The notes beneath the pieces were generated by a model that made no database searches, was not told where the DNA came from, and saw only the letters and a list, made by a program, of their open reading frames with translations. The position numbers and the translations under genes are program-made. Positions 34,125-49,147 of a DNA stretch of 64,000 nt are shown here, in pieces (position 1 is the first letter of the stretch; every line of letters begins with the position of its first letter). The stretch comes from Candidatus Obscuribacterales bacterium (GTDB taxonomy: Bacteria > Cyanobacteriota > Vampirovibrionia > Obscuribacterales > Obscuribacteraceae), in NCBI GenBank assembly GCA_965228855.1, contig CBDDIJ010000002.1, forward strand, positions 2,016,001 through 2,080,000, written 5' to 3'.

Positions 34125-34790
34125 CTAGTTATTTCTGGTGCGATCGTACAAATCTTGCGAAACTGGCTCCAGTGCATCGCCCTTCTGGAGATACACCGCT
34201 ACTGCGACCTGCCGTGCAGACGCTGGATTTTCCTTGCGAATTATTCTTCGGGATAGCACGTTCTTCGAACCGAGGATTGAAACGTCTACGCTGTAGAAGT
34301 TCGCTTTGCACTGAATTTTGACAGGTTCGTTCGTCTCATTTTTGAACTTCAGATCCTGGCGTCCGTACCATACTGTGGCGTCAAGCCCGGGAAGGACCGT
34401 CGAGATCGTTCGCGAATGAGGAGTTCGTTCCTCAATCTTTAAACCGGATTCAAGTGCCGCTTTGTAGATCAGTGATGAAACCAAACAAACGCCACCGCCC
34501 TCGGTGCTGGCGGTACCATTTCCTAAGTAGGTCGGCGCGGCAACGAAGCCGCGTTCATATGTTCGCGGCCCTACGACGCGATTGAATGAGAAGGTTTCGC
34601 CCGGACGAAGAACATATTCGTCGATTCTCCGACAAGCCTGTCCGATATTTACCTTTGACTTACGGTTTAAAGAGGTGATTCTGCTGTGAGCCTGTCCGAC
34701 TGTAGTTTGGCATGGTCGATCTTGCCAGTAACACAGAAGTATCACGAGAGGCAGAAGTATGATCAGATAGGACTTGTCCATCTTGATCAT
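34125..34790 (-). CDS. VanW family protein
   Basis: NI..AC..ID..VL.PGETFSFN..VGPRT...GF, GGGVCLVSS.IY, ERTPHS, GLDATV, DLKFKN; N-terminal signal; ATGA overlap with the A2M stop. Confidence 0.9.
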   Translation of the reverse strand: MIKMDKSYLIILLPLVILLCYWQDRPCQTTVGQAHSRITSLNRKSKVNIGQACRRIDEYVLRPGETFSFNRVVGPRTYERGFVAAPTYLGNGTASTEGGGVCLVSSLIYKAALESGLKIEERTPHSRTISTVLPGLDATVWYGRQDLKFKNETNEPVKIQCKANFYSVDVSILGSKNVLSRRIIRKENPASARQVAVAVYLQKGDALEPVSQDLYDRTRNN

Positions 34791-37700
34791 TTTATTGTCA
34801 GCTCCTCAGACACGGTGTAGCCGCGGATGAGCTTGGTGTACATTCCAGCTAGCGAGACCGGGTTGACGTTGACCTTGCCCGGCAGCTCCATTCTTAACAG
34901 GCAGCTGAACTCTTTCTTGCCTGCCGGAATAGTCGTGCCGAAAAATACGATTTTATCGTCCAGGATATCCTGGTGTGACCACCAGGTTCCACCCCAGTCA
35001 CCGGATATAGTGGCGCTCGAATCTGAGCCTTCGTCTACCGCTTGTTGGGCGCCGCGGCTCTTAACCACTTCAGCACCGCTAGGCAGCGGGCATTCTACGA
35101 TCACATATGGCATCGAAATCGGGCTGTCGACCAATACCTTCATCAGTATGGTTTCGCCGGCCTTGATAGTGCCGCCGTTAAAGGGTTTCGAAACCACTTT
35201 CAAAACGCCGTCAGTGCCTGCCGGTTGAGATTCTAGCCGGTAGAATGTGCGCGACATCGTCAGACCGGCTGGGCTGTTCTTTACGGGGACCGCTTCCCCA
35301 GGTTTCATCGTTTTCGTGTAGCTGAGAATGGTGTTGTAATACAGCTTACCCATTCCAACTTTCTGCAGTTGAACAGCTCCAGTGGCAGGTTTGAAAGTCG
35401 GTAGCGCGAATGATTTTTCTTTGCTGAAACGCTCGCCGCCGGAGAAAGAAATTTCTGTTTGCAGCACGTTGTCCATCAGGACTCTAGCCGAAACCGTCTC
35501 TCCGCTGTTCGCGGCGCTCATGAGCGCGTCGTCCAGGAGGGCGCGCAGAACCTCGCTGGTTGTCTTGGTATTGCACCAGCCGTCGCGATCGCGATGAAGC
35601 ATCATCCACATCTTTATCTGCTCCAGCAGGTCTGTTTTGTCAGACTTGTTAGCCAGCATTGCGCGGAAAGCCAGCGCCGTTGTTTCCTCTCCTGTGTAGC
35701 GGTAGGACCAGTCAGTGACACCAACTAGTTTCAATCGCTTCAACATCGCATCAGTGTGTTCCCAGTCAACTGTAGCATCCGATTTGTTTGCGATAGCGAT
35801 CAAACGATCACTGGCTTTCTGAGCGGATTCTGTTTCGCCCAGGTTTTTGAACGCAAGTGCTGCGTATGCTAATGGCTCAGGCGTGAAAGCTGGTATCTCT
35901 TTCTTGAGCCATGCAATCACAGATGGTGTCGGTTTAGCCTTGTAGACGCTCATGCAATAAACCAATCTAGCCATATCGCAGCGGCGCGTTTCGGCGTTCC
36001 AGTCCTTAACGAGTTTCGGATCGGAAAGTTGTTTCTCCAGGGCAGTAGTGTTGTCCTGCAGCCACTTCAGACCACGAGTTTGCATTGATTGATCTACGCT
36101 GTAGCCGGCATCTTTCAAGAGATAGAGGCCTTCGAGAACAAGCGAAGTCATATAAGGATCGCTCGCGTCGTCCTTCCACCAACCCCAACCGCCGTCGGAA
36201 TGTTGGTGCTCAGACAATTTAGCCATTCCCATCTGACGAACCTTCTCGAATCGTTTAATCGATTCTGGAAGCAAGGGAACGTTCAACTTCTTGTTTAACT
36301 GCATCGCGACGATTGATGGCATAAAGCGCGACATCGTTTGCTCTGTACAACCGTATGGGTAGTCGATCAGCGAGTCGAAAGTGCCCTGCACCTGACCAAT
36401 CACCGATCCGGCAAGATTTACTTGCATCTTTGGTGAGAAGACCTGCCCCACTTCGGCGTGCGAAATCTGAACAGACGGAGTAGCATCGGTCAGGACGCCG
36501 GAGTCTGCATTGAACAATGGGATGCCCAGTGAGTTTACGGGAAGTTTTCTCTCCAGGTAATCTCCGCCCGTCTGACCTTGAGCTTTCACGCGAATCATGC
36601 CGACACCAGGTTTTGCAATCGATACGGGCCAGGTGAATTTGCCAACCTTCTCAGGCTCAACTGACAGATTCTGTGCTAGTGGCAGGTTGGTTTTGAACTG
36701 ATCGGAAACCGTGAGGGTGAGAGTGATGTTTTGCTTTTGATCCGAGTAGTTATGAACCACGGCGGAAATTTCTCCGCCATCACCTTCGGTGTAGAAGCGT
36801 GGCAATGCCAGACGCGCGATGATGTCTTGCGTCACCAGGATTGATTGCGTCGTGGCTCCGACATCGCAGTTCATGCTGACACCGCGGACAGTGGCGCGCC
36901 AGGTTGTGAGATTGTCGGGAAGTACAACATTGGCGGTGACAACACCGTTTGAATCGGTCACGAGGTGCGGAAGCCATGCTGCCGTGTCCTTGAAATTCTT
37001 ACGAAGCCTGGGCTCGTCCAGCGTTTTGTCCGGACCACCGGAATAGCTCTCCGGGAAGGAGCAGAATGTGCTCACTCGATTGGAGCGCTGGTTGTAGAAC
37101 TTCTTGCGAATATCGCCGGCGTTTTCCGGCCTGATGCTATAGATGCTCTCATCGACGACGCCCAGTGAAACTTCTGTGTTCGGTGCCGGTCGACCATCTT
37201 CGTATGTCGCCTTAATCGTATATTTTGCCGTCTCACCGGCTTTGTATTTCGGTTTGTCAGTTTCGATAGCGAGCTTCAAGAAATGATCTTTTGGTGAAAC
37301 CTTGAGCATCTCTGTGCTTGCGTAGAACTGCTTTTTCTTTGCGACCATGGTTACGCCAACGAAGACATTCGGCGCGTATGCTTTGTCGATCGGAATCTCC
37401 ACCAGATTCGCAGTTGCTTTGAGCGGAACAATGCGGTGGCTATATAGAGTTGTTCCTTCTACGGTGACGAGCGCATCGTAGCCTTCTTTGCCGGTGAATG
37501 GCCCTGAAATCATCACACGGGCGGTGTCACCAACGGTGTAAACGCTCTTGTTGAGGGAGATCTTGAAAGATTGCTTCTCTGAATCGCCGCGATAGAACGG
37601 GTACGAATCGCTTGCTACCCAGATAGAGCCGGTATCAAGTATGGTGTCACCCTTGGCGTCTTTAGCCGTGGCTGTGATATAAAAAGTGTCGGTCGGCCAT

Positions 37701-39802
37701 TGCGTGCCGGCGTTTGCTTTGAACAAGACTTTGCCGTCTGGTCCGGTCGTGACGTCGCCTTCGTTTAGAACGACTTCCTTTTCTTCAGTGTGGGTTACTG
37801 CGTTCCAAGGGAAACGTGAAACTTTGACGTGCACTTTCTGATTGGCAAGCGGCTTACCGTCATAGTCGCGAGCTTCTATGGTGGCCTCGACCCCTTCGCC
37901 AGCCCGCACTACATAGTTGGTCGGGTCTACAAACAGGGCGAAATCTCCAGGCGTTACGGAGACATGCCCGCTGCCGGTTACGGTTAGCTGACTTATGTCA
38001 GTGACCTCGGCTTCTATTTTGTAATCGCGCTCGCGATACTCATAGAAGTAGCTGGACGATGCGTAGTTGGGTTCCACTTTCTTGGTGTCGAAAGTAATTG
38101 TTGCCTGACCGTTTTCGTCGGTTTGCGCGACGCCTTCAGTGAGGAAGCTGCCACCATAGTCATAGTCGCCTTCGCCATCATTGTCATTCCAGTCGTCATA
38201 GAATTCTTCGTAAGCTGGTCGTGGTTGCAGCTTATAGCGGATCGAATAGTCCGGCGAAGCATAGACGGAGTATTTGACGCGCGCATTAGCGACTGGTCCG
38301 CCAAAGAAATAGGTAGCGTTTAGTGTGGCCGAAACCTTGCTGCCGGCAGTCACGCGAGGCGCATTCGGTTTGATTTCAATCTTGTATTCAGGCTTTCTGT
38401 ATTGATCTACTTCAAAATATTCGTAGTCGGTATTGCCGGTCGATGCATATGTGAGTTTGCATGAATAGCCGCCGGTCTTGCCCTCTTCAGGGATGTTGAA
38501 CGTGCCATTGAAGGTTCCGAATTTTGTTGTCTTAATAGTTCCCGAATATAATTGAACGTTGGACGGATCCTCGATGACAACGGTAATTTCCTCTCCTTCG
38601 CCGATGTTCTCGAATCCTTTAGCTGTCAGTTGTCTGGCAACTCCTTTGAAGCAAACCGTTTGTCCAAGCCGGTAAATGGGCCTGTCGGTATAGAAGTAAG
38701 TGGTGATGTCATCGCTACTGCCGCCGTAGTAGTAGCCTCCGGCTGCGTAGGCCGTGTGACCTTGACGCTCTCCGATGATCGTCGACTCGTAATTCTCTCC
38801 ATCGCCGTGCTTGATGAATGCGATGCCGTCCGCGCCGGTAGTGGCTTTAGCGAGGACTTTGCTGGCATCCGAATCCTTGGGAATCATGCTCAGATTGACT
38901 CCACTGATACCGGCAAGCGTGTTTAAATCAATCGCGCGAACAAGAGTCCCCTCAGGCGAATGCTTGGCTACAAGCCCGATATCGCTTACCGTGAACCAGG
39001 AAATTGCCGTGCACTGTTTTTCTCCCGTGAGATCTTTGCACTCTGCCACCACGAAGTAATCTCCGGGCGTTAGATCTTTGTCCAGTTTGAAATCAGCTCT
39101 GCTTGAGTCTTCGAAATTGGGCGAGAGGTGGCGTTTGAGCTCTTTGATCGGTTTTTCCGCCGTCGCAAATGGATTGGTCAATTTCGAATTGTATGAACCG
39201 TACAAACTCAAGTCATTCGACATATGCATGTCGACTTTGGGCAAAACATTTATTGCGGTCGATAAAAACGGTTTCTTGTAAAGCTTGACTGTTGCTTCAG
39301 TGGCACCGGTCGCGCGGATCCAGAACGAAGGATTCTCTTGTGTGGTGAAGACGCGCACGTTGCTGGCTATCGTCACGGACGGTTCCAGTACATGCAGTTT
39401 GATCGTATCAGGAAGCGCCTGGATTTTGCCATCTTTAACCTGCACACCCTGGACATATTCGGTTTCGAAACCGGGTGCGCGAACCTTAATTTCGTACTCA
39501 CCGACCGGAAGCTGGTCGATTGTGAATGTGCCGTCTTCCTTTACCCATGCGCCTCGAGCCAGAGTGATGCCGTCTCTGGGTCCAGTCGCCACTGCATAGA
39601 CTTTGTTTTGCCGAATGTCATAGGAATACAATCCGAATTTCTTTTCTTCCAGCGCTATGGACCCGCTCACAGAGCCGGACGGTCGCTGAAGGAAAATCGC
39701 AAGTGCCGCGGCGACTAACGCGTAAAGCAGCATAACTTCCCATGACAGGAAGAGGTTGCGTTGTGGTGATTGATTGGTTTTATCTGTAGACATCGGCATC
39801 AA
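34787..39802 (-). CDS. Bacterial alpha-2-macroglobulin with intact thioester motif
   Basis: YTDRPIYRLGQ, YRKPEY, GVVDESIY, RKNFKDTAAW, LPDNLTTWR, YPYGCTEQ (CxEQ thioester), QHSDGGWGWW, WCNTKTT, PLPSGAE; N-terminal TM plus carboxypeptidase-regulatory-like domain. Confidence 0.95.
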   Translation of the reverse strand: MMPMSTDKTNQSPQRNLFLSWEVMLLYALVAAALAIFLQRPSGSVSGSIALEEKKFGLYSYDIRQNKVYAVATGPRDGITLARGAWVKEDGTFTIDQLPVGEYEIKVRAPGFETEYVQGVQVKDGKIQALPDTIKLHVLEPSVTIASNVRVFTTQENPSFWIRATGATEATVKLYKKPFLSTAINVLPKVDMHMSNDLSLYGSYNSKLTNPFATAEKPIKELKRHLSPNFEDSSRADFKLDKDLTPGDYFVVAECKDLTGEKQCTAISWFTVSDIGLVAKHSPEGTLVRAIDLNTLAGISGVNLSMIPKDSDASKVLAKATTGADGIAFIKHGDGENYESTIIGERQGHTAYAAGGYYYGGSSDDITTYFYTDRPIYRLGQTVCFKGVARQLTAKGFENIGEGEEITVVIEDPSNVQLYSGTIKTTKFGTFNGTFNIPEEGKTGGYSCKLTYASTGNTDYEYFEVDQYRKPEYKIEIKPNAPRVTAGSKVSATLNATYFFGGPVANARVKYSVYASPDYSIRYKLQPRPAYEEFYDDWNDNDGEGDYDYGGSFLTEGVAQTDENGQATITFDTKKVEPNYASSSYFYEYRERDYKIEAEVTDISQLTVTGSGHVSVTPGDFALFVDPTNYVVRAGEGVEATIEARDYDGKPLANQKVHVKVSRFPWNAVTHTEEKEVVLNEGDVTTGPDGKVLFKANAGTQWPTDTFYITATAKDAKGDTILDTGSIWVASDSYPFYRGDSEKQSFKISLNKSVYTVGDTARVMISGPFTGKEGYDALVTVEGTTLYSHRIVPLKATANLVEIPIDKAYAPNVFVGVTMVAKKKQFYASTEMLKVSPKDHFLKLAIETDKPKYKAGETAKYTIKATYEDGRPAPNTEVSLGVVDESIYSIRPENAGDIRKKFYNQRSNRVSTFCSFPESYSGGPDKTLDEPRLRKNFKDTAAWLPHLVTDSNGVVTANVVLPDNLTTWRATVRGVSMNCDVGATTQSILVTQDIIARLALPRFYTEGDGGEISAVVHNYSDQKQNITLTLTVSDQFKTNLPLAQNLSVEPEKVGKFTWPVSIAKPGVGMIRVKAQGQTGGDYLERKLPVNSLGIPLFNADSGVLTDATPSVQISHAEVGQVFSPKMQVNLAGSVIGQVQGTFDSLIDYPYGCTEQTMSRFMPSIVAMQLNKKLNVPLLPESIKRFEKVRQMGMAKLSEHQHSDGGWGWWKDDASDPYMTSLVLEGLYLLKDAGYSVDQSMQTRGLKWLQDNTTALEKQLSDPKLVKDWNAETRRCDMARLVYCMSVYKAKPTPSVIAWLKKEIPAFTPEPLAYAALAFKNLGETESAQKASDRLIAIANKSDATVDWEHTDAMLKRLKLVGVTDWSYRYTGEETTALAFRAMLANKSDKTDLLEQIKMWMMLHRDRDGWCNTKTTSEVLRALLDDALMSAANSGETVSARVLMDNVLQTEISFSGGERFSKEKSFALPTFKPATGAVQLQKVGMGKLYYNTILSYTKTMKPGEAVPVKNSPAGLTMSRTFYRLESQPAGTDGVLKVVSKPFNGGTIKAGETILMKVLVDSPISMPYVIVECPLPSGAEVVKSRGAQQAVDEGSDSSATISGDWGGTWWSHQDILDDKIVFFGTTIPAGKKEFSCLLRMELPGKVNVNPVSLAGMYTKLIRGYTVSEELTIK

Positions 39803-40583
39803 TTCTGTACAGTTGGCATTGTTGGGATGATGGGATTCCGGCTTTTAGTTTGGTTTTCACCAGCTGATAGTGAGGGTCGCTCGCTTCACCCGGTAATAGA
39901 ACCGCTCCTTTGCCTCCGGCTCGCACCATTAGACCTTGTTTCAAAGGCTGCATGGTACTTATGGAGTTTATAGGAACGATCCTCTTTACTACGGTTACTT
40001 GAGGTATAAGTAGATTAATCTCGCTCTTTTTTATTTTTGAATATCGGTAGTCCTTGTTTAACGCATCTTCAGTTGTGTAGATCGTGGATTCGACGAGGTT
40101 TTTGTGAGTGGCAGCCACATTGCCCCAGCAGGCCCGCGTATCGCCGTTTTTGATCAAGGTGATAAACAGTCCCGCGTTTTTCTGATGATGTTTTTTGACG
40201 GAAAATCTTTTTGCAAGCTCGTCAAGTGAAAGCGTCCTCCAGCTTTCGTTTTCATCTGCACCGAAGTGGTGAAGAATCGTGAGCCGTGCAATCTCGGGTA
40301 ACGATGCGTCGATTGTCCCACCGATAGTTTCCTTTGAAAACATTGTCTTTCTGCCGCTAGACTTGCCTTTCGGCACTTCTGTTTGATTTACGTGTTGCTC
40401 GATGTTTTTAGTGAGGAGGGTTTCATTGAAGGCTGGCGCTGCGAATATTGTTTCGAAAGAGCTGATGGGCGGCTTGATCTGCAGCGATTTTTCAATCTCT
40501 CCATTACAATATGGCGACCATTCAAGTGTGACGGCAAGACATAACAAGGTCGTCAGGCATAGTAAGACAGATTGCATTAGCAC
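39780..40583 (-). CDS. AMMECR1-domain protein with N-terminal signal/anchor
   Basis: GLFITL...DTRACWG (compare LRGCIG), DYRY..I...EI, GLMV..G.KGAVLLPGEA, KLKAG; overlaps the A2M start. Confidence 0.8.
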   Translation of the reverse strand: MLMQSVLLCLTTLLCLAVTLEWSPYCNGEIEKSLQIKPPISSFETIFAAPAFNETLLTKNIEQHVNQTEVPKGKSSGRKTMFSKETIGGTIDASLPEIARLTILHHFGADENESWRTLSLDELAKRFSVKKHHQKNAGLFITLIKNGDTRACWGNVAATHKNLVESTIYTTEDALNKDYRYSKIKKSEINLLIPQVTVVKRIVPINSISTMQPLKQGLMVRAGGKGAVLLPGEASDPHYQLVKTKLKAGIPSSQQCQLYRIDADVYR

Positions 40584-40718
40584 TCTCTCGTTGCTTGTGA
40601 AAGATCTACGGAGCCCTGGAGACTATTATGGGAGTGCTCCGCTAAACTGTTGGAAACCGCAGGTTGAAACCGTGTGAGATGATTGTAAACTTTGTCGCGG
40701 AGAAAAATTCGATTCTTG

Positions 40719-41705
40719 ATGGCACGCAAAGATGATACGGCAAAACAGGCGGAAAGCCTCAACAGACGACGGTTTCTGAAGTCGATGTTTGGGCTCGGCG
40801 GTGCGCTGGAGGCAACTCAGAGCGAACCTGAAGAGGCTGCCGCAGCTAATCCGAGTTCCAAGAAGGCAGTGAAATCTTCCGCTGCGACAGGGGCTCTATT
40901 TTTCTGGGCTGATTTGCAAAATGGCAACGTCGGTTTTCCATCGGGGCTACAAGTGCCGCATTCGCGTGCCGGTAGTGTTATGAAGTTGATCACTGCAGCA
41001 TGTCTTTTAGAGGAAGGCGTTTTTAATCCGAACGAAACAGAAGAATGCACGGGGTCGGTCTCTATCGGCGGGGAAACTTATGGCTGCGGAAAAGGGCATG
41101 GAATCCTGACAATCGATCAGGCGATCGCGCTATCGTGCAATGTGTTTTTTGCGAAAGTGTCGCGCAAAATAGGTCCGATGGCGATCATCGATTACGCCAG
41201 GAAGTTCGGAATGGATTCACCTGCAGCCGGCTTCAAATGTGGTGCCTTTCCCACTAAACCGAAAGCTTCGACAGCTAGATACGCGCTGGGTCTGTCGGAC
41301 GATATGCAGCCAAGCGCTCTCCAAATGCTTAGGCTGGCTGCTATCTTCGGAACTGAAGGCAAGGTGCCGGCTATGAAAAACGCGGGCATGTTTGATGTGA
41401 ATGATCTGAGTATCAAACCGTTTTCACTGGATTTAAGAGAGACGACGTTTCGCCGAATTCGTAAGGGAATGGTCCTAGCCTGTGAGCAAGGTACAGCAAT
41501 GAAGCTTGATCCCGAGCACAAATTGAAAGTCGCAGCTAAGACGGGAACCGTTCCTCATGGGAAGAACTTTGAATCTTGGGTAATTGGTTATTTCCCATAC
41601 GATAAGCCTGTACATGCCTTTTGCTTGTTTGCACCATCAGGAACCAGTCGCGATAGCGCCGTGCCGCAAGCTCGCGATAAGCTGATGTCGGTTTACTGGC
41701 CGTGA
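40719..41705 (+). CDS. Stand-alone penicillin-binding transpeptidase domain with twin-arginine signal
   Basis: SxxK (GSVMK), SxN (SCN), KTG (AKTGT); N-terminal NRRRFLK. Confidence 0.85.
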   Translation: MARKDDTAKQAESLNRRRFLKSMFGLGGALEATQSEPEEAAAANPSSKKAVKSSAATGALFFWADLQNGNVGFPSGLQVPHSRAGSVMKLITAACLLEEGVFNPNETEECTGSVSIGGETYGCGKGHGILTIDQAIALSCNVFFAKVSRKIGPMAIIDYARKFGMDSPAAGFKCGAFPTKPKASTARYALGLSDDMQPSALQMLRLAAIFGTEGKVPAMKNAGMFDVNDLSIKPFSLDLRETTFRRIRKGMVLACEQGTAMKLDPEHKLKVAAKTGTVPHGKNFESWVIGYFPYDKPVHAFCLFAPSGTSRDSAVPQARDKLMSVYWP

Positions 41706-42907
41706 GCCCAGTTAGTATGCTGATGTGGTTTTGCATATCAAAGTTTAGACTGATACTACTGCTGGTGGTCCTCGCTGGCTTGAATGGGGCTCCTGCACTT
41801 GCGCTGCCGTCTAACTTGCGAGTGAAACTGTTCGAAGCGCACGGTAGACTCGAGTCCGTGCATATTCGCGGTCCGCTCGATATCGTAGTACCAGGACAAA
41901 AGAGGATCTCTAAAGCTGAGTGGATAAGGGTCTCCTCAAGAAATGGGCAGATAGAGTTGTTTTCGTCTGGCAACTCGCATCATTCGTTTTTGTCCTGTCA
42001 AAAGTTGGTTGTACAACCGCTAGATCGTCGCGGAGTGCGAATTAAAGTCAATCGAGACAACATAGAAAGAGCCTATCTTGGCCGATTGAACTTCTCTGTC
42101 GGCGAAACGGCCAAACTTCCGTCACTGAAGATAGTCAACGAGCTGCCTACATTTGAATACGTGGCTTCTGTTGTTGGTTCCGAGTCGCCTGTTCGGAGTC
42201 CGCCAGAGGCAATGAAGGCGCTGGCTGTTTTAGTCATCGCTATTGTCGAACAGAAAGGCGAACGCAGCTTGGTTGGTGACTCGACCAAAGAGCAAGCTTA
42301 TAAAGGATGCGAGCACGCAACGCCATCAGTCTTCGCCGCTGTCAAAGCCGTGTACGGCAAGCGGCTTTTTTATAAGAATTCGCCTGTACAAGCATTTTTT
42401 CACTCTACCTGCGCCGGTGGCACTAGTCGAGGCGTCGACATCTTTGGTAAGAATGCCGGACCGCTTGTTTATCTGGAGTCGGTGCCGTGCGAGTACTGCA
42501 AGAACTCACCGTTCTGGGATTTGAAGGTTTCCTCGTTGCCGTTATCGACAATGAAGCAGGCGTTCGGGGGAAGACTGAGTGCCACTAAATACGATGCTCA
42601 AGATCGTCCAACACAAGTAGAGGTTCTGGACGGTAAGTCGGCCGGCAACGTGATGTCCGGTTACGAGGCGTGGCTCAGAATTGGTCGAACTTACGGCTGG
42701 GGAAAGGTGCCAGGGACTCGCTACCAATTTCGTGATAACAACGAGAAATTGGTGGATATCGAATCGTCAGGTGCTGGCCATGGCGTAGGTTATTGCCAAT
42801 GGGGAGGCGTGGGTATGGCAAAGCAAGGGAAGAAGTACGACGAGATTCTGAGGTTTTATTTTCCGAAGTGTAATCTTCGGACGATTGCGGTGAGGGCGCC
42901 TCGTTAA
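41702..42907 (+). CDS. SpoIID/LytB-family lytic transglycosylase
   Basis: VNEL..FEYVASVVGSE (catalytic Glu), EAMKALAV, DST..QAYKG, FHSTCAGGT, GAGHGVGYCQWG, YDEILRFYFP; signal peptide; GTGA overlap with the PBP gene. Confidence 0.9.
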   Translation: MSPVSMLMWFCISKFRLILLLVVLAGLNGAPALALPSNLRVKLFEAHGRLESVHIRGPLDIVVPGQKRISKAEWIRVSSRNGQIELFSSGNSHHSFLSCQKLVVQPLDRRGVRIKVNRDNIERAYLGRLNFSVGETAKLPSLKIVNELPTFEYVASVVGSESPVRSPPEAMKALAVLVIAIVEQKGERSLVGDSTKEQAYKGCEHATPSVFAAVKAVYGKRLFYKNSPVQAFFHSTCAGGTSRGVDIFGKNAGPLVYLESVPCEYCKNSPFWDLKVSSLPLSTMKQAFGGRLSATKYDAQDRPTQVEVLDGKSAGNVMSGYEAWLRIGRTYGWGKVPGTRYQFRDNNEKLVDIESSGAGHGVGYCQWGGVGMAKQGKKYDEILRFYFPKCNLRTIAVRAPR

Positions 42908-43340: not shown

Positions 43341-43382
43341 TTTATAAGTAGAAGCAGTTTCACCACGAGGAGGGTGAGTTAT

Positions 43383-44108
43383 ATGAGCACAACCTCGAAA
43401 CTTACAACGGCGGAACAGATCGAAGATTTCATCTCGAAACATCCCGGCGAAGAACTGATCACGCGAAGGCAACTGATACCGTTTGGTTCGGCTGCGGTAG
43501 TCGACAGCATTATTTTCAAGCTCGTTCACAAAACAGGCTCATTAATCCGCATAGCCTGGGGCTGTTATCGAAAACGCGAACGCGTCACGGAAGTTACAGG
43601 AGCGGAGGTGGCGCGAGTCAAGGCTGCAGCTTTCGGACGCAGCGTTGTTTCGTCCCCGCGCACAGTGGCTTTTAACTTGGGTATTTCCCTTAGGCCGGCA
43701 GCACCATTTGAATTTCTGACCAGTGGTCGAAGCAGTTCTTTTAAATTTCAAAATCAAAGGATTGTTTTGACAGGAGCCAGTTCCCGCAAAATGTCGTTGG
43801 GTGAGAGTAAAATCGGGCAGACCATTCGAGCACTTTGGCAGCTAGGCAAGTCTATTGTCGATGAACACGTTATCGGAAAGGCAACCGAATCCTTTTCGAC
43901 CGATGAGAGAATCGAAATGAGCAAGCTATGTGCGTCTATGCCGGAGTGGCTCGGGCAATTCTTCTATCCCTGGAGACTCCTGGAGAAAGTTTCTAGACCG
44001 CAATTCCAATATCCTGACGATTTGGAGCAGCTATGGCTAAACGAAGCATCCGCTCTCTATTGTGTTAGTTCCGACCCTGGCGGAAGCCGTTTGTCTCTCA
44101 CTGGTTAG
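43383..44108 (+). CDS. DUF6088 / AbiEi-like winged-helix protein, no toxin partner adjacent
   Basis: FGSAAVVD..IFKLV..GSLIRIAWGCY, AFNLGIS, FLTSGRS..FKF, IRALWQLGK, MPEWL; strong SD. Confidence 0.75.
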   Translation: MSTTSKLTTAEQIEDFISKHPGEELITRRQLIPFGSAAVVDSIIFKLVHKTGSLIRIAWGCYRKRERVTEVTGAEVARVKAAAFGRSVVSSPRTVAFNLGISLRPAAPFEFLTSGRSSSFKFQNQRIVLTGASSRKMSLGESKIGQTIRALWQLGKSIVDEHVIGKATESFSTDERIEMSKLCASMPEWLGQFFYPWRLLEKVSRPQFQYPDDLEQLWLNEASALYCVSSDPGGSRLSLTG

Positions 44109-44274: not shown

Positions 44275-45069
44275 TCATGAAGCCGCTTTTATGCCACCGG
44301 ACGCGATGGCGCTTGCCGACTGGCTAAAGAGTTGAAAACGTGAACGAATTGCTCGTGGATCTCGCTCGACGACGTCGATGCAATTTGCTGGAATTCCCAT
44401 TTCCGTTCCGATCTTTTTGAAATCTTCGTTGTCGAGTTGCAAGCCCATGAAGAAAATCTTGTGTTTTTCCATTGCGAGCATGTCCTTCACCACCTTTGCC
44501 ACATCTGCAGCAGTTGATCGTCCTTCATTATTGATGCCGTCGGTCATTAATAGGGTGACTGAACGCGTCTGGATTCCATATGTCTCCTCCCACCACTTTG
44601 TCCTTGCGATAACGCTTCCAAGCGTTTCCAGACAGCGGTCGTATAACGGTGTTCCCGAGCCTGCGATGAAACCCTTTCTCTCTAGTCGCGGCGCCGCCTT
44701 CAAATTGGACCAGCGGAATTGTTCTTCGCTTCCAGTGATGTGACGCGTATACAGCTTGCTGTGGTTCAACAGTATTGTCAGTGATTCGATCGAATTCACT
44801 GCTCGGGCACCGATTAGTGAATTCACGACGAGGTTGTGTCCCTCGATAACGGCATTATCGTTGTCGTTGAATTCCATCGATGGACTATTGTCTATCAGCA
44901 TGCATAGCTGAGTTTGTTCTGTCACAGTCGGTTTCACGACCGGAGCCGCCATTGTGCGGTTGATGCGTGTGGATAAACCGTTTAATAGGGCTGCTGAACC
45001 AGGCGAGATCTCGCCGGCATCGAGGGATTCTTGGAAAAGGTCGGATGCATCTGGTGTGTCTGAACTCAT
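44275..45069 (-). CDS. vWA (TerY-like) domain protein
   Basis: MIDAS motifs LIDNSPSM, GTPLYD and LMTDG; SD AGGAG. Confidence 0.85.
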   Translation of the reverse strand: MSSDTPDASDLFQESLDAGEISPGSAALLNGLSTRINRTMAAPVVKPTVTEQTQLCMLIDNSPSMEFNDNDNAVIEGHNLVVNSLIGARAVNSIESLTILLNHSKLYTRHITGSEEQFRWSNLKAAPRLERKGFIAGSGTPLYDRCLETLGSVIARTKWWEETYGIQTRSVTLLMTDGINNEGRSTAADVAKVVKDMLAMEKHKIFFMGLQLDNEDFKKIGTEMGIPANCIDVVERDPRAIRSRFQLFSQSASAIASGGIKAAS

Positions 45070-45127
45070 AATATTCTCCTTCTGAATGAAATTTTGCCGA
45101 AAATCTTTTTGACCGAACTAATTCGAT

Positions 45128-46174
45128 TCACTCAAAGAGGTCGGGATTGATTCCCGGCCAATCCTGCATAGGCGTTTTCGAATTGACGACGTTCATTCCA
45201 GCCTTTTTGAAATCTGCAATTGCTTCCTGTCCTTGTTGTTCAAAACCGGGAACGGAAGAAGTGCAGTCTTCCAGGATGTACACGCGTTTGGCGAGCGCCG
45301 GATCCTGCGCTTTGATTTTCTTGAGGATGTCGTAGATGGCAGCTCGAACACAGTGCGACTCGGCTTCACCCGCAATTATTAGCGCTTCGTATTTAAGCAA
45401 ATCCTCGACTGCTTTATCCGATTCTTCACCAACGGTGACACCATCGTGCGCCTTCGTTATCTCCGTGCCGAACGGCGAATAGTATTCGCTCAGTGGCAAA
45501 TCGCCCTTCAAACGATACTGCGTTCTGCTCCAGCGAGCGATGTCGTGGAAGTCCACCGCCACTTGAAGCGAAGGGACAATTGCATGACCCGGACTGGCTA
45601 ATCTGCCGTGAACAGGCCACACCACCAGTGGTGGCTTGCCTAAACGAGCTAATTCCTCCGTGTAATGAATCACGTAGTTTTGCAACCAGGGCAGAAATTT
45701 CATGTCTCCAAAGAGAACGTATGCCATTTCCGGGTTGACGAAAATTGTTTTACCGACGTCTCCTGGAAGAACTACGGTGAAACCGTTTGGATGTTTTCCA
45801 TCGCCATCGGTCCAGAATAGCGGATGGAAAATCTGAAAGAGGTAGTGTGTATCCAGTGTCAGAATGATGTCGCTTATTACTCTCATGTTGCGGTAAATGA
45901 ATTCGCATATGTTCGAGGTATCAGACACCGATGCCGGAGCGATCGACAGCTCCCCATCGGCAAGGCAGAAAGTCTTCTGCTGGTCGATGATTGTGAGCGC
46001 AATCGAGTGCTTATCTTTTCTGCGCGGTTCAATTTTGTGAAGGGTTCTCCACTCTGCAGCATTCGCCATGATTTCCTGGTAGTTTGGTGTGAAGAAATCC
46101 GCCACTTTGTTTTTGTCGTACAGAGGTGGGAAAGGCAGTTCATAAGCAGGTTTGCTCTTCAGTACGTTACTCAT
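45128..46174 (-). CDS. Nicotinamidase/isochorismatase-family cysteine hydrolase
   Basis: IIDQQKTFC (Asp), TLDTH (metal ligands), WPVH..., RLKG (Lys), GEAESHCV (Cys), LEDCTS; SD AGGAG. Confidence 0.85.
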   Translation of the reverse strand: MSNVLKSKPAYELPFPPLYDKNKVADFFTPNYQEIMANAAEWRTLHKIEPRRKDKHSIALTIIDQQKTFCLADGELSIAPASVSDTSNICEFIYRNMRVISDIILTLDTHYLFQIFHPLFWTDGDGKHPNGFTVVLPGDVGKTIFVNPEMAYVLFGDMKFLPWLQNYVIHYTEELARLGKPPLVVWPVHGRLASPGHAIVPSLQVAVDFHDIARWSRTQYRLKGDLPLSEYYSPFGTEITKAHDGVTVGEESDKAVEDLLKYEALIIAGEAESHCVRAAIYDILKKIKAQDPALAKRVYILEDCTSSVPGFEQQGQEAIADFKKAGMNVVNSKTPMQDWPGINPDLFE

Positions 46175-46248
46175 ATCGATCTCCTTTGGTCGTTCAAAAC
46201 CGAGCGCGTTGTGGTGCGCGCCGAAACTGCAATTTTCTGTTTAACTAA

Positions 46249-48105
46249 CTAACTAATACTCAGTAATCTGATTGATTTTGAGTTCCACGCGTACAACCCT
46301 CCATTCGTGAAAATCAAGTTGTCTCCTGCTTCCAATATTTGTTCTGGTCCCGTAAACTCTTGCGCGATCCGCAATGACATTACATCTGCTTCCACTTTCG
46401 CTATTCCGCTGTTAGTGGGCACCAACAGCGTTTCTATCATTCCTCCTCTTTGATCCGGTATTGCTGCCGCGCAACTTTGATGAAGTCCATCCATCCAACT
46501 GCCGTTGCCGTCCGGTATTTCGCAGGTTCCCAGGCAACTGCCGCAATCGTTAAAAGCGGTGACGCGATTGAAAACTTGTCCCTTTTCTTCGAAGGTTACG
46601 AGCAACCAGAGTTGTCTTTCCGTAAATCGGCAACTCACTTTCAATAACGTTCCGCGCATCGCGTCTACGTCGAGCAGCTTCCGGCCTATCGTTTCATCGT
46701 CGAACAAGAAAGCTCTTCTAAATTCACCGGCAAGGTAAAACCCAAATCCAAAACTGGGACCAGCCCAAATTCTCGTTTGTTCTTTTAGCACCTCGTCTAT
46801 GAAACTTTTTCTGCCATCTTTGATGCTAAAAAGTTGTCCATCCTCAATGATGTAGCAGGTCCGGTGACTGCAATCGAAAACCGGCTCCCTGTCTCTGAAC
46901 TGGTCTATTACAATTTGGTGGTGAGTGCTATCGTGTGCGAAATGCACTAAGCGTTTTCCTTTTCCGGCAAAGGTTGACGAGTTCTGAAGTGCGAACCGCA
47001 AGTCGCTATCGATTTTTCCTTTGAGAACGACTTGACCATTTTCTCGGATGAATTGCTCTTCGAGGTTGTAGAGATATCTTAGATTGGAGCCATCATGAGT
47101 GACGTTCAGTATTACGCCGTCCGTTGAGAAAACAACTTGAGACTTTCCGTTTGATGCTACTTTAGCCTTAGTGGTCCCTGATGCTGACTTTTTCGAAGGG
47201 CTCAAATTTAGAAGAAGAGGAAGTGGAAACGGTGTCCGCACGTCTTCTTGCAGCATAGCCTCGAAAAAAACAATCAGGTCCCGCGAGAGAATATCTTGAA
47301 TTCTTTTGCCTGCCAGTGGGTAGGATACGTCTTTGTTGAATACTGAAATTCGTTTGAGGGCGCGCTGATCAGGCGAGACTCTTTGCACAGGAAGTTTTGG
47401 TTTGTACACACCGCCGTAGGGATGTACGTTAAGCAGCGCCTCAAATAGCATCGTCGAGAATGAGTACCAGTCTGTCTCCTCTGAAAATCTTTCGCACAAT
47501 CCGATTTGACCATTTGTCAGCTGCAGTACGAGCGGATCCGCATACCTGTTCGTGAAAGTCTTACATGTATACGTTGAGAACTGCATGCTGTCGGTATCGA
47601 CGATGTATGCGTCTTTGCCGGATACTAAAACATTAAGGCTATTGAAGTCACCGATTATGACACCACTTGCGTGCAGAGCTGAAACGGAAGCATGCAAATC
47701 TGAGAACACATCTACAATTGTCGGTATGGAGATGTCTTTTGATTCCTGAAAATCGCGCTGCGAAAATTCGTGCATGCTATTTGCCCGAGTGATGTTCGCC
47801 ATGGTGTAGCCCACAACTCTTCGATCGGCTTGCTGATTCTTGTCGTAAACAAGCCTTAAAGGTGATACTACATGAGGTATCAGCAGCTTCGGGAACTGCT
47901 CCAGTTTGATTTGATGCTCTTGCAGTCTAATCCCGGCAGTCTGAGCGGATCGCAAATCTGACTTGAATTGCGGATGGCTGGGTTGTTTGAACAACTTCAA
48001 TACTTCCTGGTCATCGAGTTTGTAGACTTCAGCTTCGCCCCCTTCTCCGATCAAAGCTGACGGTTGAAGGCGGATTTTTTGATCTTCTATGTAAACAGCA
48101 AACAT
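46249..48105 (-). CDS. YegI-type (TerY-P triad) Ser/Thr kinase with C-terminal beta-rich domain
   Basis: IGEGGEAEVY, VLKLF, GVIIGDFNSLNVLV, IVDTDSMQ, TDWYSF, VHPYGG. Start at ATG 48105 with SD GAGGT. Confidence 0.85.
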   Translation of the reverse strand: MFAVYIEDQKIRLQPSALIGEGGEAEVYKLDDQEVLKLFKQPSHPQFKSDLRSAQTAGIRLQEHQIKLEQFPKLLIPHVVSPLRLVYDKNQQADRRVVGYTMANITRANSMHEFSQRDFQESKDISIPTIVDVFSDLHASVSALHASGVIIGDFNSLNVLVSGKDAYIVDTDSMQFSTYTCKTFTNRYADPLVLQLTNGQIGLCERFSEETDWYSFSTMLFEALLNVHPYGGVYKPKLPVQRVSPDQRALKRISVFNKDVSYPLAGKRIQDILSRDLIVFFEAMLQEDVRTPFPLPLLLNLSPSKKSASGTTKAKVASNGKSQVVFSTDGVILNVTHDGSNLRYLYNLEEQFIRENGQVVLKGKIDSDLRFALQNSSTFAGKGKRLVHFAHDSTHHQIVIDQFRDREPVFDCSHRTCYIIEDGQLFSIKDGRKSFIDEVLKEQTRIWAGPSFGFGFYLAGEFRRAFLFDDETIGRKLLDVDAMRGTLLKVSCRFTERQLWLLVTFEEKGQVFNRVTAFNDCGSCLGTCEIPDGNGSWMDGLHQSCAAAIPDQRGGMIETLLVPTNSGIAKVEADVMSLRIAQEFTGPEQILEAGDNLIFTNGGLYAWNSKSIRLLSIS

Positions 48106-48115
48106 CTTCGTTACC

Positions 48116-49009
48116 TCATCGCCGGCGTAACGCAATTACGGTTGTGTCGTCCGGAAGTAAACCTTGATGGCGTTCCATCCGCATTTCCAGAGAGTTGAAT
48201 GTAGTAACTTCGCTGTTTAGCTGGCGGAGCCACGGCGTTAACGAATGAGGGTTTTCTTCCGTAAAAAAATTGTCGTTAGTCCAGATTTGACTGATGTGTC
48301 CGACTAGCCGGTTTTTACCTGGAATTCTTCGCAGTTCTTTGTCCAGTAAATCTCTCAAACCATCAGTAGCGATCATCACGGTCTCGAGGTCTTCAGTTGG
48401 GATTACTTTGTGTACTTTGATCTTCAGGAAGTCACCTTCGCATCTAGAGTTTGTGAAGAGTGAATATGCAAGATAGGGCGGCGCATTTCCCGGATATGGA
48501 CCAATTTCCCGGAGCTCTCCATTGACTGCGTAGAGCCCGTCTCCCAGCGAAAAGACGACTGTTTTATGCACAGTCACGATGACGCCAACAGTCGTAAAAA
48601 GTAGATAGTCCTGGATGAAGTTTTTGAAGTCGCAGTTGCAATATTCATTGAAATCATGTCTGCAGGTGCCAACTTCCAGACTGCTGATTATTTTTCTAAG
48701 CTGCTTCAAGCAGCGCTTCTTCGTTTGCTCAAGCTGTTCCGAAATCGATTCTTCGGTTGCCACCATGGACAGTGCACCACGACTTGCCAACTCGAGCATC
48801 GCTCGACTTAGAAGTGCTCCACCGATTTTTGCGCCGATTTCCGAATGCCGTCCGCTACCGCAGCCATCGTGAACAAGTGCGATTATGCAATCTTCGAACC
48901 TCTGCACTTCGAAACTGTCTTGATTGTTGGTGCCTTTCAGCAGATTGCCATATCCAATATGAGATCTGCCAGGAATCGTACCAGCAGAGATTTGAAACCC
49001 GAGAGCCAT
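48116..49009 (-). CDS. PP2C-type phosphatase (YegK-like, TerY-P triad)
   Basis: AGTIPGRSH, NNQD, VHDGCGSG..SEIGA, LGDG, IATDG, DDTT; SD GGAGG. Confidence 0.88.
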   Translation of the reverse strand: MALGFQISAGTIPGRSHIGYGNLLKGTNNQDSFEVQRFEDCIIALVHDGCGSGRHSEIGAKIGGALLSRAMLELASRGALSMVATEESISEQLEQTKKRCLKQLRKIISSLEVGTCRHDFNEYCNCDFKNFIQDYLLFTTVGVIVTVHKTVVFSLGDGLYAVNGELREIGPYPGNAPPYLAYSLFTNSRCEGDFLKIKVHKVIPTEDLETVMIATDGLRDLLDKELRRIPGKNRLVGHISQIWTNDNFFTEENPHSLTPWLRQLNSEVTTFNSLEMRMERHQGLLPDDTTVIALRRR

Positions 49010-49118
49010 TAGAACCTCCCGCGCCTGACTATAAAAAATCGCGCGCTCACGCAGGAAGAACTGTTGTTCGTCCGTGCAAATTATTTTGTTTTGATCTCGC
49101 CCAGTAAGCGTTATTTAT

Positions 49119-49147
49119 ACGATAACTCTCCGCCGGTTCTTTGTCAA
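49119..49147 (-). promoter_or_regulatory. Sigma70-type promoter of the PP2C-kinase-hydrolase-vWA operon
   Basis: Minus strand TTGACA (49147-49142), 17-bp spacer, TATCGT (49124-49119). A second TTGACA-17-CATCCT lies at 49175-49147. Confidence 0.55.

Follow-up and report, generated by a model that had tools for sequence, protein, structure and literature searches.

Introduction

In the TerY-P triad, as a passage of PMC11090510 summarises it from Anantharaman 2012, a von Willebrand factor A (vWA) protein resembling TerY is joined by a PP2C phosphatase and a Ser/Thr kinase that carries a zinc ribbon. The yegL-pphC-yegI operon of Escherichia coli unites the same domain types, and its kinase YegI has two transmembrane segments and, in place of DFG, a D-S-D-S loop; according to a passage of 10.1101/819920, the serine of this D-x-D-S loop is needed for YegI autophosphorylation. 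A stand-alone TerY-P-like triad with an OB-fold kinase is recorded as a defence system in a passage of PMC11090510 that cites Gao 2020, and a Deinococcus operon combining vWA, kinase, FHA and PP2C genes is listed in a further account (10.64898/2026.01.23.701218). Here we analyse a related unit in a 64,000-nucleotide stretch, the window, of a Candidatus Obscuribacterales genome (GCA_965228855.1, contig CBDDIJ010000002.1, positions 2,016,001 to 2,080,000), where four co-oriented genes on the minus strand encode, in order, a PP2C phosphatase, a kinase, a nicotinamidase-like cysteine hydrolase and a vWA protein.

Cleavage of nicotinamide adenine dinucleotide (NAD+) yields ADP-ribose and nicotinamide, and on the deamidated salvage route nicotinamide is converted to nicotinate, which then passes through PncB, NadD and NadE. 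In the part of PMC2330246 that treats NrtR regulons, PncA occurs in operons such as nrtR-pncA-pncB-nadD-nadE and feeds PncB-NadD-NadE, the operator consensus is a 21-bp palindrome with a GT-N7-AC core, and ADP-ribose releases NrtR from this operator. Phages rebuild NAD+ through the reconstitution pathways NARP1 (Adps and Namat), NARP2 (Nampt and Nmnat) and NARP3 (PnuC and NadR), as passages of 10.1101/2024.02.11.579819 and PMC13464706 describe, and the main text of PMC11662467 has already reported pncB-nadD-nadE (Preiss-Handler) clusters in gut jumbo phages, with nicotinate as the starting substrate.

The unit described here is a real, widespread and apparently undescribed arrangement of known parts: a literature search covering main texts, passages and abstracts found no nicotinamidase joined to a vWA-PP2C-kinase triad. 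It shares with TerY-P and yegL-pphC-yegI the three domain types in one operon and an intact metal-ion-dependent adhesion site (MIDAS), and its kinase has D-T-D-S where YegI has D-S-D-S. Unlike those systems, it has a near-obligate nicotinamidase partner, a predicted beta-propeller and an NrtR-type operator, and it is common in phages; its kinase is soluble and, in this copy, without the zinc ribbon of TerY-P. The Gao 2020-type system (PADLOC TerY PDLC02224, STK_OB PDLC02223), compared through the citing passage, likewise contains a vWA-phosphatase-kinase triad, but its kinase bears an OB fold, whereas ours bears a 300-residue, 28-strand all-beta domain, has no STK_OB match and stands in no defence-island context. 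With the PncA of NrtR regulons our locus shares the catalytic triad, the metal site, the fold, a 21-bp operator over the promoter and the pairing with nrtR, pncB and nadE, but that PncA is about 130 residues shorter, and the operon-table passages of PMC2330246 list no kinase, phosphatase or vWA gene with it. None of the four genes belongs to the NARP pairs given above; the rebuilding of NAD+ in phages is the feature held in common with these pathways and with the jumbo-phage clusters, in whose main texts neither a nicotinamidase entry nor a kinase-phosphatase switch was found.

We judge that the unit acts in the manner of a TerY-P switch, here connected to NAD+ salvage under NrtR control, though it lacks the zinc ribbon (in this copy), OB fold and membrane segments of the named triads, and that its likely role is the control of NAD+ recycling through phosphorylation, not phage defence. 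With moderate confidence, we propose that it is the entry step of NAD+ salvage, induced in cells by ADP-ribose and gated through phosphorylation by a kinase, phosphatase and vWA adaptor of its own.

The four-gene unit and its products

The features of the locus, in window coordinates, are as follows.

44275..45069, minus strand: protein of 264 residues with a vWA domain and an intact MIDAS (Pfam VWA at E 0.15 only; MIDAS conservation)
45128..46174, minus strand: nicotinamidase (PncA)-like cysteine hydrolase, 348 residues (profile, fold and residues)
46249..48105, minus strand: Hanks-type Ser/Thr kinase, 618 residues from ATG 48105 (fold and conserved motifs)
46252..47148, minus strand: all-beta domain at the C terminus of the kinase (residues 320-617), a putative seven-bladed beta-propeller in the model
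48116..49009, minus strand: PP2C-type Ser/Thr phosphatase, 297 residues (Pfam PP2C_2, E 5.5e-18; metal-binding aspartates invariant in 53 sequences)
49105..49125, no strand assigned: imperfect 21-bp palindrome with a GT-N7-AC core that overlaps the -10 hexamer and is predicted to be an NrtR operator
49119..49147, minus strand: sigma70-type promoter-like site, TTGACA-17-TATCGT, 10 of 12 matches

A preliminary description made from the sequence alone had reported four co-oriented genes with Shine-Dalgarno sites in this order, and all are present, each preceded by a Shine-Dalgarno-like site; that of the kinase lies at ATG 48105 and not at TTG 48135, which makes the former the most likely start. 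The 8.2 Mb genome contains the unit once, the closest named homologue comes from Candidatus Obscuribacterales, and the G+C content of the unit is 0.46-0.50, that of the flanking genes being slightly higher (0.48-0.51). Pfam names the phosphatase, while the kinase, hydrolase and vWA protein all fall below its cut-offs, and scans of NCBIfam and PHROGs assigned the hydrolase no family. That these three collections leave the hydrolase and the vWA protein unnamed at their cut-offs may explain why the unit has been overlooked.

The hydrolase keeps the Asp/Lys/Cys triad and DxH motif noted earlier: D64, K223 and C275 are invariant across 53 aligned sequences that include E. coli PncA, as are D108, H110, W186 and H189 and, in addition, Q66, F69, G224, G269, A271 and D303. 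We take the Asp-x-His and the His of W-P-x-H to be the PncA metal site. A single-sequence search of the PDB with the hydrolase returned nothing, and a profile was needed for matches; the best hits of a 65-sequence profile are five nicotinamidases (E 8e-10 to 7e-7). The structural model has a predicted local distance difference test score (pLDDT) of 96.9, and Foldseek ranks 1-14 are all nicotinamidases, with template modelling scores by target mostly 0.70-0.78; among isochorismatase-like hydrolases, its fold is thus nearest to theirs. The earlier assignment of a nicotinamidase-like enzyme is thus borne out, and residues, fold and gene neighbours together predict that it deamidates nicotinamide. 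It is about 130 residues longer than E. coli PncA. In P0119, P0130, P0141, P0144, P0152, P0156 and P0163, and at locus L099, the hydrolase is the rear part of a fusion whose N-terminal domain, about 230 residues long, is conserved; in P0130, the copy scanned, this domain has no Pfam match.

The genome also encodes two ordinary PncA domains, each fused to NadE (contig C2, 229.5-232.4 kb and 245.9-248.9 kb), and because of these the hydrolase of the unit is one copy more, under control of its own; this would suit an inducible function and also allows another substrate. The two fusion genes (C2 226-249 kb; L193, L190) lie about 16 kb apart, each behind a Prs-like gene and the first also behind NadD-like and NAPRT-like genes; long PncA-bearing frames of this kind recur in many genomes of the family, and the region is possibly an integrated element.

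The kinase domain is of Hanks type (PknB as structural match, Z 18.8, root-mean-square deviation 3.6, 246 residues aligned), and its Lys, catalytic Asp/Asn and Mg-binding Asp are fully conserved among 51 dereplicated relatives. D170-T-D172-S173 (ATG numbering) replaces DFG, as in YegI, and the serine is conserved in 98%; the YegI-type kinase proposed before is therefore upheld in its catalytic motifs, including the D-x-D-S loop, with 23% identity to YegI across the kinase domain (E 3e-10). The kinase has no transmembrane segment (hydropathy maximum 1.26 versus 2.27 for YegI) and is modelled as a soluble two-domain protein. Between its two domains, 22 of 47 aligned family members have a zinc ribbon, which is absent from this copy and from six family relatives, seven copies in all.

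The extra beta-rich C-terminal domain of about 300 residues that the preliminary description had pointed out reappears in the model as 28 strands in seven groups of four (residues 320-617, pLDDT mostly >88). The top Foldseek matches of the kinase are LRRK2 chains, whose alignments span about 700 columns; LRRK2 ends in a WD40 propeller. Another, wide structural search was dominated by the kinase domain, with residues beyond 368 barely covered. Because of the 28-strand pattern and the LRRK2 matches, we infer a seven-bladed beta-propeller. The ESM Atlas gave no usable match for this domain.

In the phosphatase, D31, D48, D216 and D287-D288 are invariant among 53 dereplicated relatives, and the vWA protein has, as previously proposed, an intact MIDAS (D60-x-S62-x-S64...T140...D177), conserved at 94-100% in 62 dereplicated relatives. 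The likeness to a TerY-P or yegLKI-type triad accordingly stands in domain types and kinase motifs, but not in BLAST comparison, which is not significant for the vWA protein against E. coli YegL (E 0.32) or for the phosphatase against PphC (E 0.056). The PADLOC TerY model does not match the vWA protein, but YegL itself reaches only E 0.032 with it.

Linkage and distribution

Within its class the unit is confined to the family of the window: 10 of 201 genomes match, nine of them among the 47 other genomes of that family, and none of the 153 genomes of ten other families carries a match. All four genes occur in the same order in the eight family relatives examined (of nine). Beyond the class it ranges through huge phages, a gut temperate-phage clade and cyanobacteria, and four matches in a 50,697-record phage collection are all uncultured, with no cultured phage among them.

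We surveyed gene neighbourhoods from two seeds. From the hydrolase, the cellular sample (the best 80 of at least 584 genome loci, several at contig ends) has a complete triad at 13 loci, a partial one at 7 and none at 60, and the viral sample (the best 80 of 198 loci) has 70, 7 and 3; after dereplication, and with three GenBank huge phages added, 33 of 38 viral loci have the complete triad. At all 93 hydrolase-seeded loci considered, a count that was not dereplicated, the core gene that follows the hydrolase is that of the vWA protein. From the kinase, we retained distinct loci whose flanks extend at least 4 kb upstream and at least 2.5 kb downstream. All four genes are found at 34 of the 37 viral loci that pass this filter (of 44) and at every one of the 24 metagenomic loci that pass it among the best 80 of at least 384, the remaining 56 being contig ends or duplicates. 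The two seedings are not independent, as the kinase seed alignment came from kinases of the module and some viral contigs recur in both. Together they show the hydrolase conserved beside the triad across phyla, as had been conjectured. The link is one-sided: the kinase clade is nearly always accompanied by the hydrolase, and the hydrolase can lose the triad.

A loose connection would be expected if the triad were a general stress switch merely co-regulated with the hydrolase under NrtR, with no physical or catalytic link, which we regard as very improbable. The hydrolase has repeatedly lost the triad, with 9 changes of triad label on its 119-row tree (40 in shuffles), and the viral kinase-seeded loci L226, L238 and L239 have no hydrolase within 7 kb, as such loose association would allow; yet the kinase clade has its hydrolase in 58 of 61 cases, and the link survives in phages, where no operator box was found (0 of 43), and through at least three gene orders. 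One of these orders, vWA-PP2C-kinase-hydrolase, is found in two large viral contigs (L198, L207). At L123, L130 and L143, loci of the gut phage clade described below, a deletion leaves a short vWA and a kinase remnant.

Both trees nest cellular copies among viral ones, the outgroup branch being long and the cellular sample comprising the 80 best loci out of at least 584. We weighed descent of the cellular copies from phages; given this sample and the long branch, we claim no donor.

NAD+ and ADP-ribosylation neighbours

That the unit is related to NAD, as the preliminary description held, is sustained by its surroundings and by the operator discussed below. Of 33 dereplicated viral modules, 16 have a PncB, NadE or NadD-like gene (families checked with Pfam) no more than about 10 kb away, and at L206, L217 and L222 salvage genes stand inside the unit itself. 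An nrtR gene adjoins the unit at five cellular loci (L039, L049, L052, L079 and L090). It had also been suggested that the hydrolase diverts nicotinamide from salvage; this finds no support, as enzymes that would use its product are encoded beside nearly half of the viral modules.

Other neighbours point elsewhere. At four cyanobacterial loci (L039, L052, L079 and L081) an ADP-ribosylglycohydrolase gene lies between the PP2C and kinase genes, and viral neighbours include NUDIX, NrtR, Macro-like, PARP-WGR, RNA ligase, RtcB and TROVE-like genes. Nicotinamide is a product inhibitor of sirtuins and ADP-ribosyltransferases. The unit might therefore serve the turnover or repair of ADP-ribosylation instead of NAD+ supply, with the hydrolase clearing nicotinamide or a related amide and the triad acting elsewhere, for instance on an ADP-ribosylated protein or an RNA-repair complex. 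These neighbours speak for such a role, as do the two ordinary PncA domains of the host, the absence of downstream salvage genes near about half of the viral modules and, in the Streptomyces part of PMC2330246, the control of draG by NrtR. The most frequent neighbours, however, are PncB, NadE and NadD-like genes, PncB also accompanies the hydrolase at 17 of 60 triad-less cellular loci, and the glycohydrolase is found in only 4 of 13 cellular modules and 1 of 70 viral ones. On balance we consider a role in ADP-ribosylation unlikely.

Two viral contigs have further genes of interest beside the unit. On a 205-kb contig a WGR-PARP gene adjoins it, together with PncB and a glutamine-dependent NadE (L165:7081-8481), and on a 436-kb contig a major-vault-protein-like gene, with MVP shoulder and repeat domains, lies upstream of it (L099:2858-5461).

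Promoter and predicted NrtR operator

The sigma70-type promoter proposed before is present as a sequence (TTGACA-17-TATCGT, 49147-49119, 10 of 12 matches), but alone it is not above chance, with one such site found against 5.2 expected in shuffles. The preliminary description had not noticed the 21-bp GT-N7-AC palindrome at 49105-49125 that covers the -10 hexamer, which agrees with the consensus given above and which we predict to be an operator for the genome-encoded NrtR. It is retained, with at most three mismatches to the idealised motif, in seven of eight family relatives, one of which is near-identical to this genome.

The genome encodes nrtR (C3:1521382-1522056), nadA and pncB. We scanned it with a matrix built from the boxes of six other genomes and obtained 45 matches, among which the box of the unit ranks first, a position that is partly circular, the training boxes having been chosen for their likeness to it. 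The box ranked second (C2:1877133), likewise strong, precedes an SPFH gene, an unnamed 336-residue gene and CinA (L192:1634-5211). The middle gene has no Pfam match; we take it to be NAD-kinase-like. The operon probably contains the nrtX-nrtY pair of PMC2330246. Rank 6 lies ahead of nadA, which adjoins nrtR, and most other matches precede unrelated genes.

Operator-like palindromes are found at 25 of 56 metagenomic kinase-seeded loci, versus 2.5% in shuffles, and at 0 of 43 viral kinase-seeded loci, neither set being dereplicated; five of the 25 are GC-rich, unlike the others. Phage operators could sit further upstream, and a few viral loci encode NrtR themselves.

Genomic context and phage defence

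The preliminary description had proposed the unit as a candidate defence or stress system; our results do not support a role in anti-phage defence. Phages often have the unit (33 of 38 dereplicated loci), in many cases with salvage genes, and in cells it follows an NrtR-type operator. Nor is there a defence island around it: PADLOC matches 2 of 22 window genes (25-64 kb), namely an AbiEi orphan and a kinase unrelated to the unit. In 16 cellular loci it matches 11 of 86 neighbours, with no family recurrent, though these counts lack a background set. The four proteins have no match to the PADLOC TerY or STK_OB models at E <= 0.1.

A defence role in the TerY-P style would have the kinase sense infection and the hydrolase drain nicotinamide, with the phage copies acting as superinfection defence or being stolen cargo. 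It draws on the reported defence activity of TerY-P-like triads with an OB-fold kinase, in the PMC11090510 passage citing Gao 2020, and on the patchy distribution (9 of 47 family genomes, 0 of 153 in ten other families). The orphan AbiEi-like gene abuts the unit here, and in a gut temperate-phage clade (L109-L156, redundant) it is cargo flanked by terminase and portal, its neighbours being a TROVE-like DUF2828 gene, an SPFH gene and 12-13 tRNAs; moreover, deamidation of nicotinamide would starve NARP1 and NARP2. Against these points stand, besides the PADLOC results, the large phages that hold the unit beside enzymes that would consume its product, the chromosomal neighbours fixed throughout the genus and the NrtR-type control, which points toward NAD homeostasis. 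We therefore find defence quite improbable.

Proposed mechanism

Phosphorylation-gated NAD+ salvage, our preferred reading, would proceed in four steps. Breakdown of NAD+ would yield ADP-ribose and nicotinamide, and ADP-ribose would free NrtR from the operator that, judging from the sequence, covers the -10 box. The operon would then be expressed and the hydrolase would deamidate nicotinamide, as its residues, fold and neighbours suggest. Finally, the kinase may dock a partner or ligand through its propeller, and kinase and PP2C may decide whether the vWA protein or the hydrolase is phosphorylated, a step suggested by linkage. Phosphorylation would in this way provide a fast second control above transcription, and phages, mostly without an operator at the first gene, may use the unit to help rebuild NAD+ during infection.

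Several observations weigh against this proposal, in addition to the partial circularity of the operator ranking. The hydrolase of this copy has QKTF for QxDF, H-G for H-C and large inserts, so its substrate could differ. With two ordinary PncA domains in the host, a further copy is unneeded for plain salvage, and at least one ordinary PncA is present in four of six module-bearing genomes tested. Because the hydrolase stands without the triad at 60 of the 80 cellular loci, some of them at contig ends, the triad is not required for hydrolase activity. No PncB, NadE or NadD-like gene lies within about 10 kb in 17 of the 33 dereplicated viral modules, including the gut phage clade, and the matrix scan found no strong box ahead of pncB or nrtR in this genome.

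We think it doubtful, though worth stating, that the phage version is a fourth, deamidating route of NAD+ rebuilding (nicotinamidase, then PncB, NadD, NadE), gated by a phage-encoded switch of kinase-propeller, phosphatase and vWA protein and turned on only when host immunity destroys NAD+, and that bacteria such as this one captured the cassette and brought it under NrtR control as a means of recovery when defences of their own destroy NAD+.

We know of no physiological substrate for triads of TerY-P type. The clade described here brings a built-in candidate, an easily assayed enzyme in a set of four small soluble proteins, and what such triads switch is therefore directly testable. If correct, our proposal would add a post-translational layer of control to bacterial NAD+ salvage and would give the pncB-nadD-nadE clusters of jumbo phages a candidate for their entry step, a nicotinamidase.

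Other genes of the window

The AbiEi-like antitoxin gene (43374-44108, plus strand; Pfam DUF6088, PADLOC AbiEi E 5e-22) is convergent with the vWA gene and has no partner toxin gene beside it; we rejected it as a member of the unit, as the sole other place where it was seen is G193, a near-identical genome. The second PADLOC match (59785 to beyond 64000, minus strand; L195:2783-7096) is a 1437-residue protein whose N-terminal kinase, ahead of a long further region, matches STK_OB at E 7e-53. It was rejected as the core of a second triad, since no vWA- or PP2C-like frame was seen by eye among the eight open reading frames of at least 150 residues in the 19 kb around it. On the other side, the genes at 34787-42907, presumably alpha-2-macroglobulin-like, AMMECR1-like, transpeptidase-like and SpoIID-like, flank the four-gene unit in conserved order throughout the genus.

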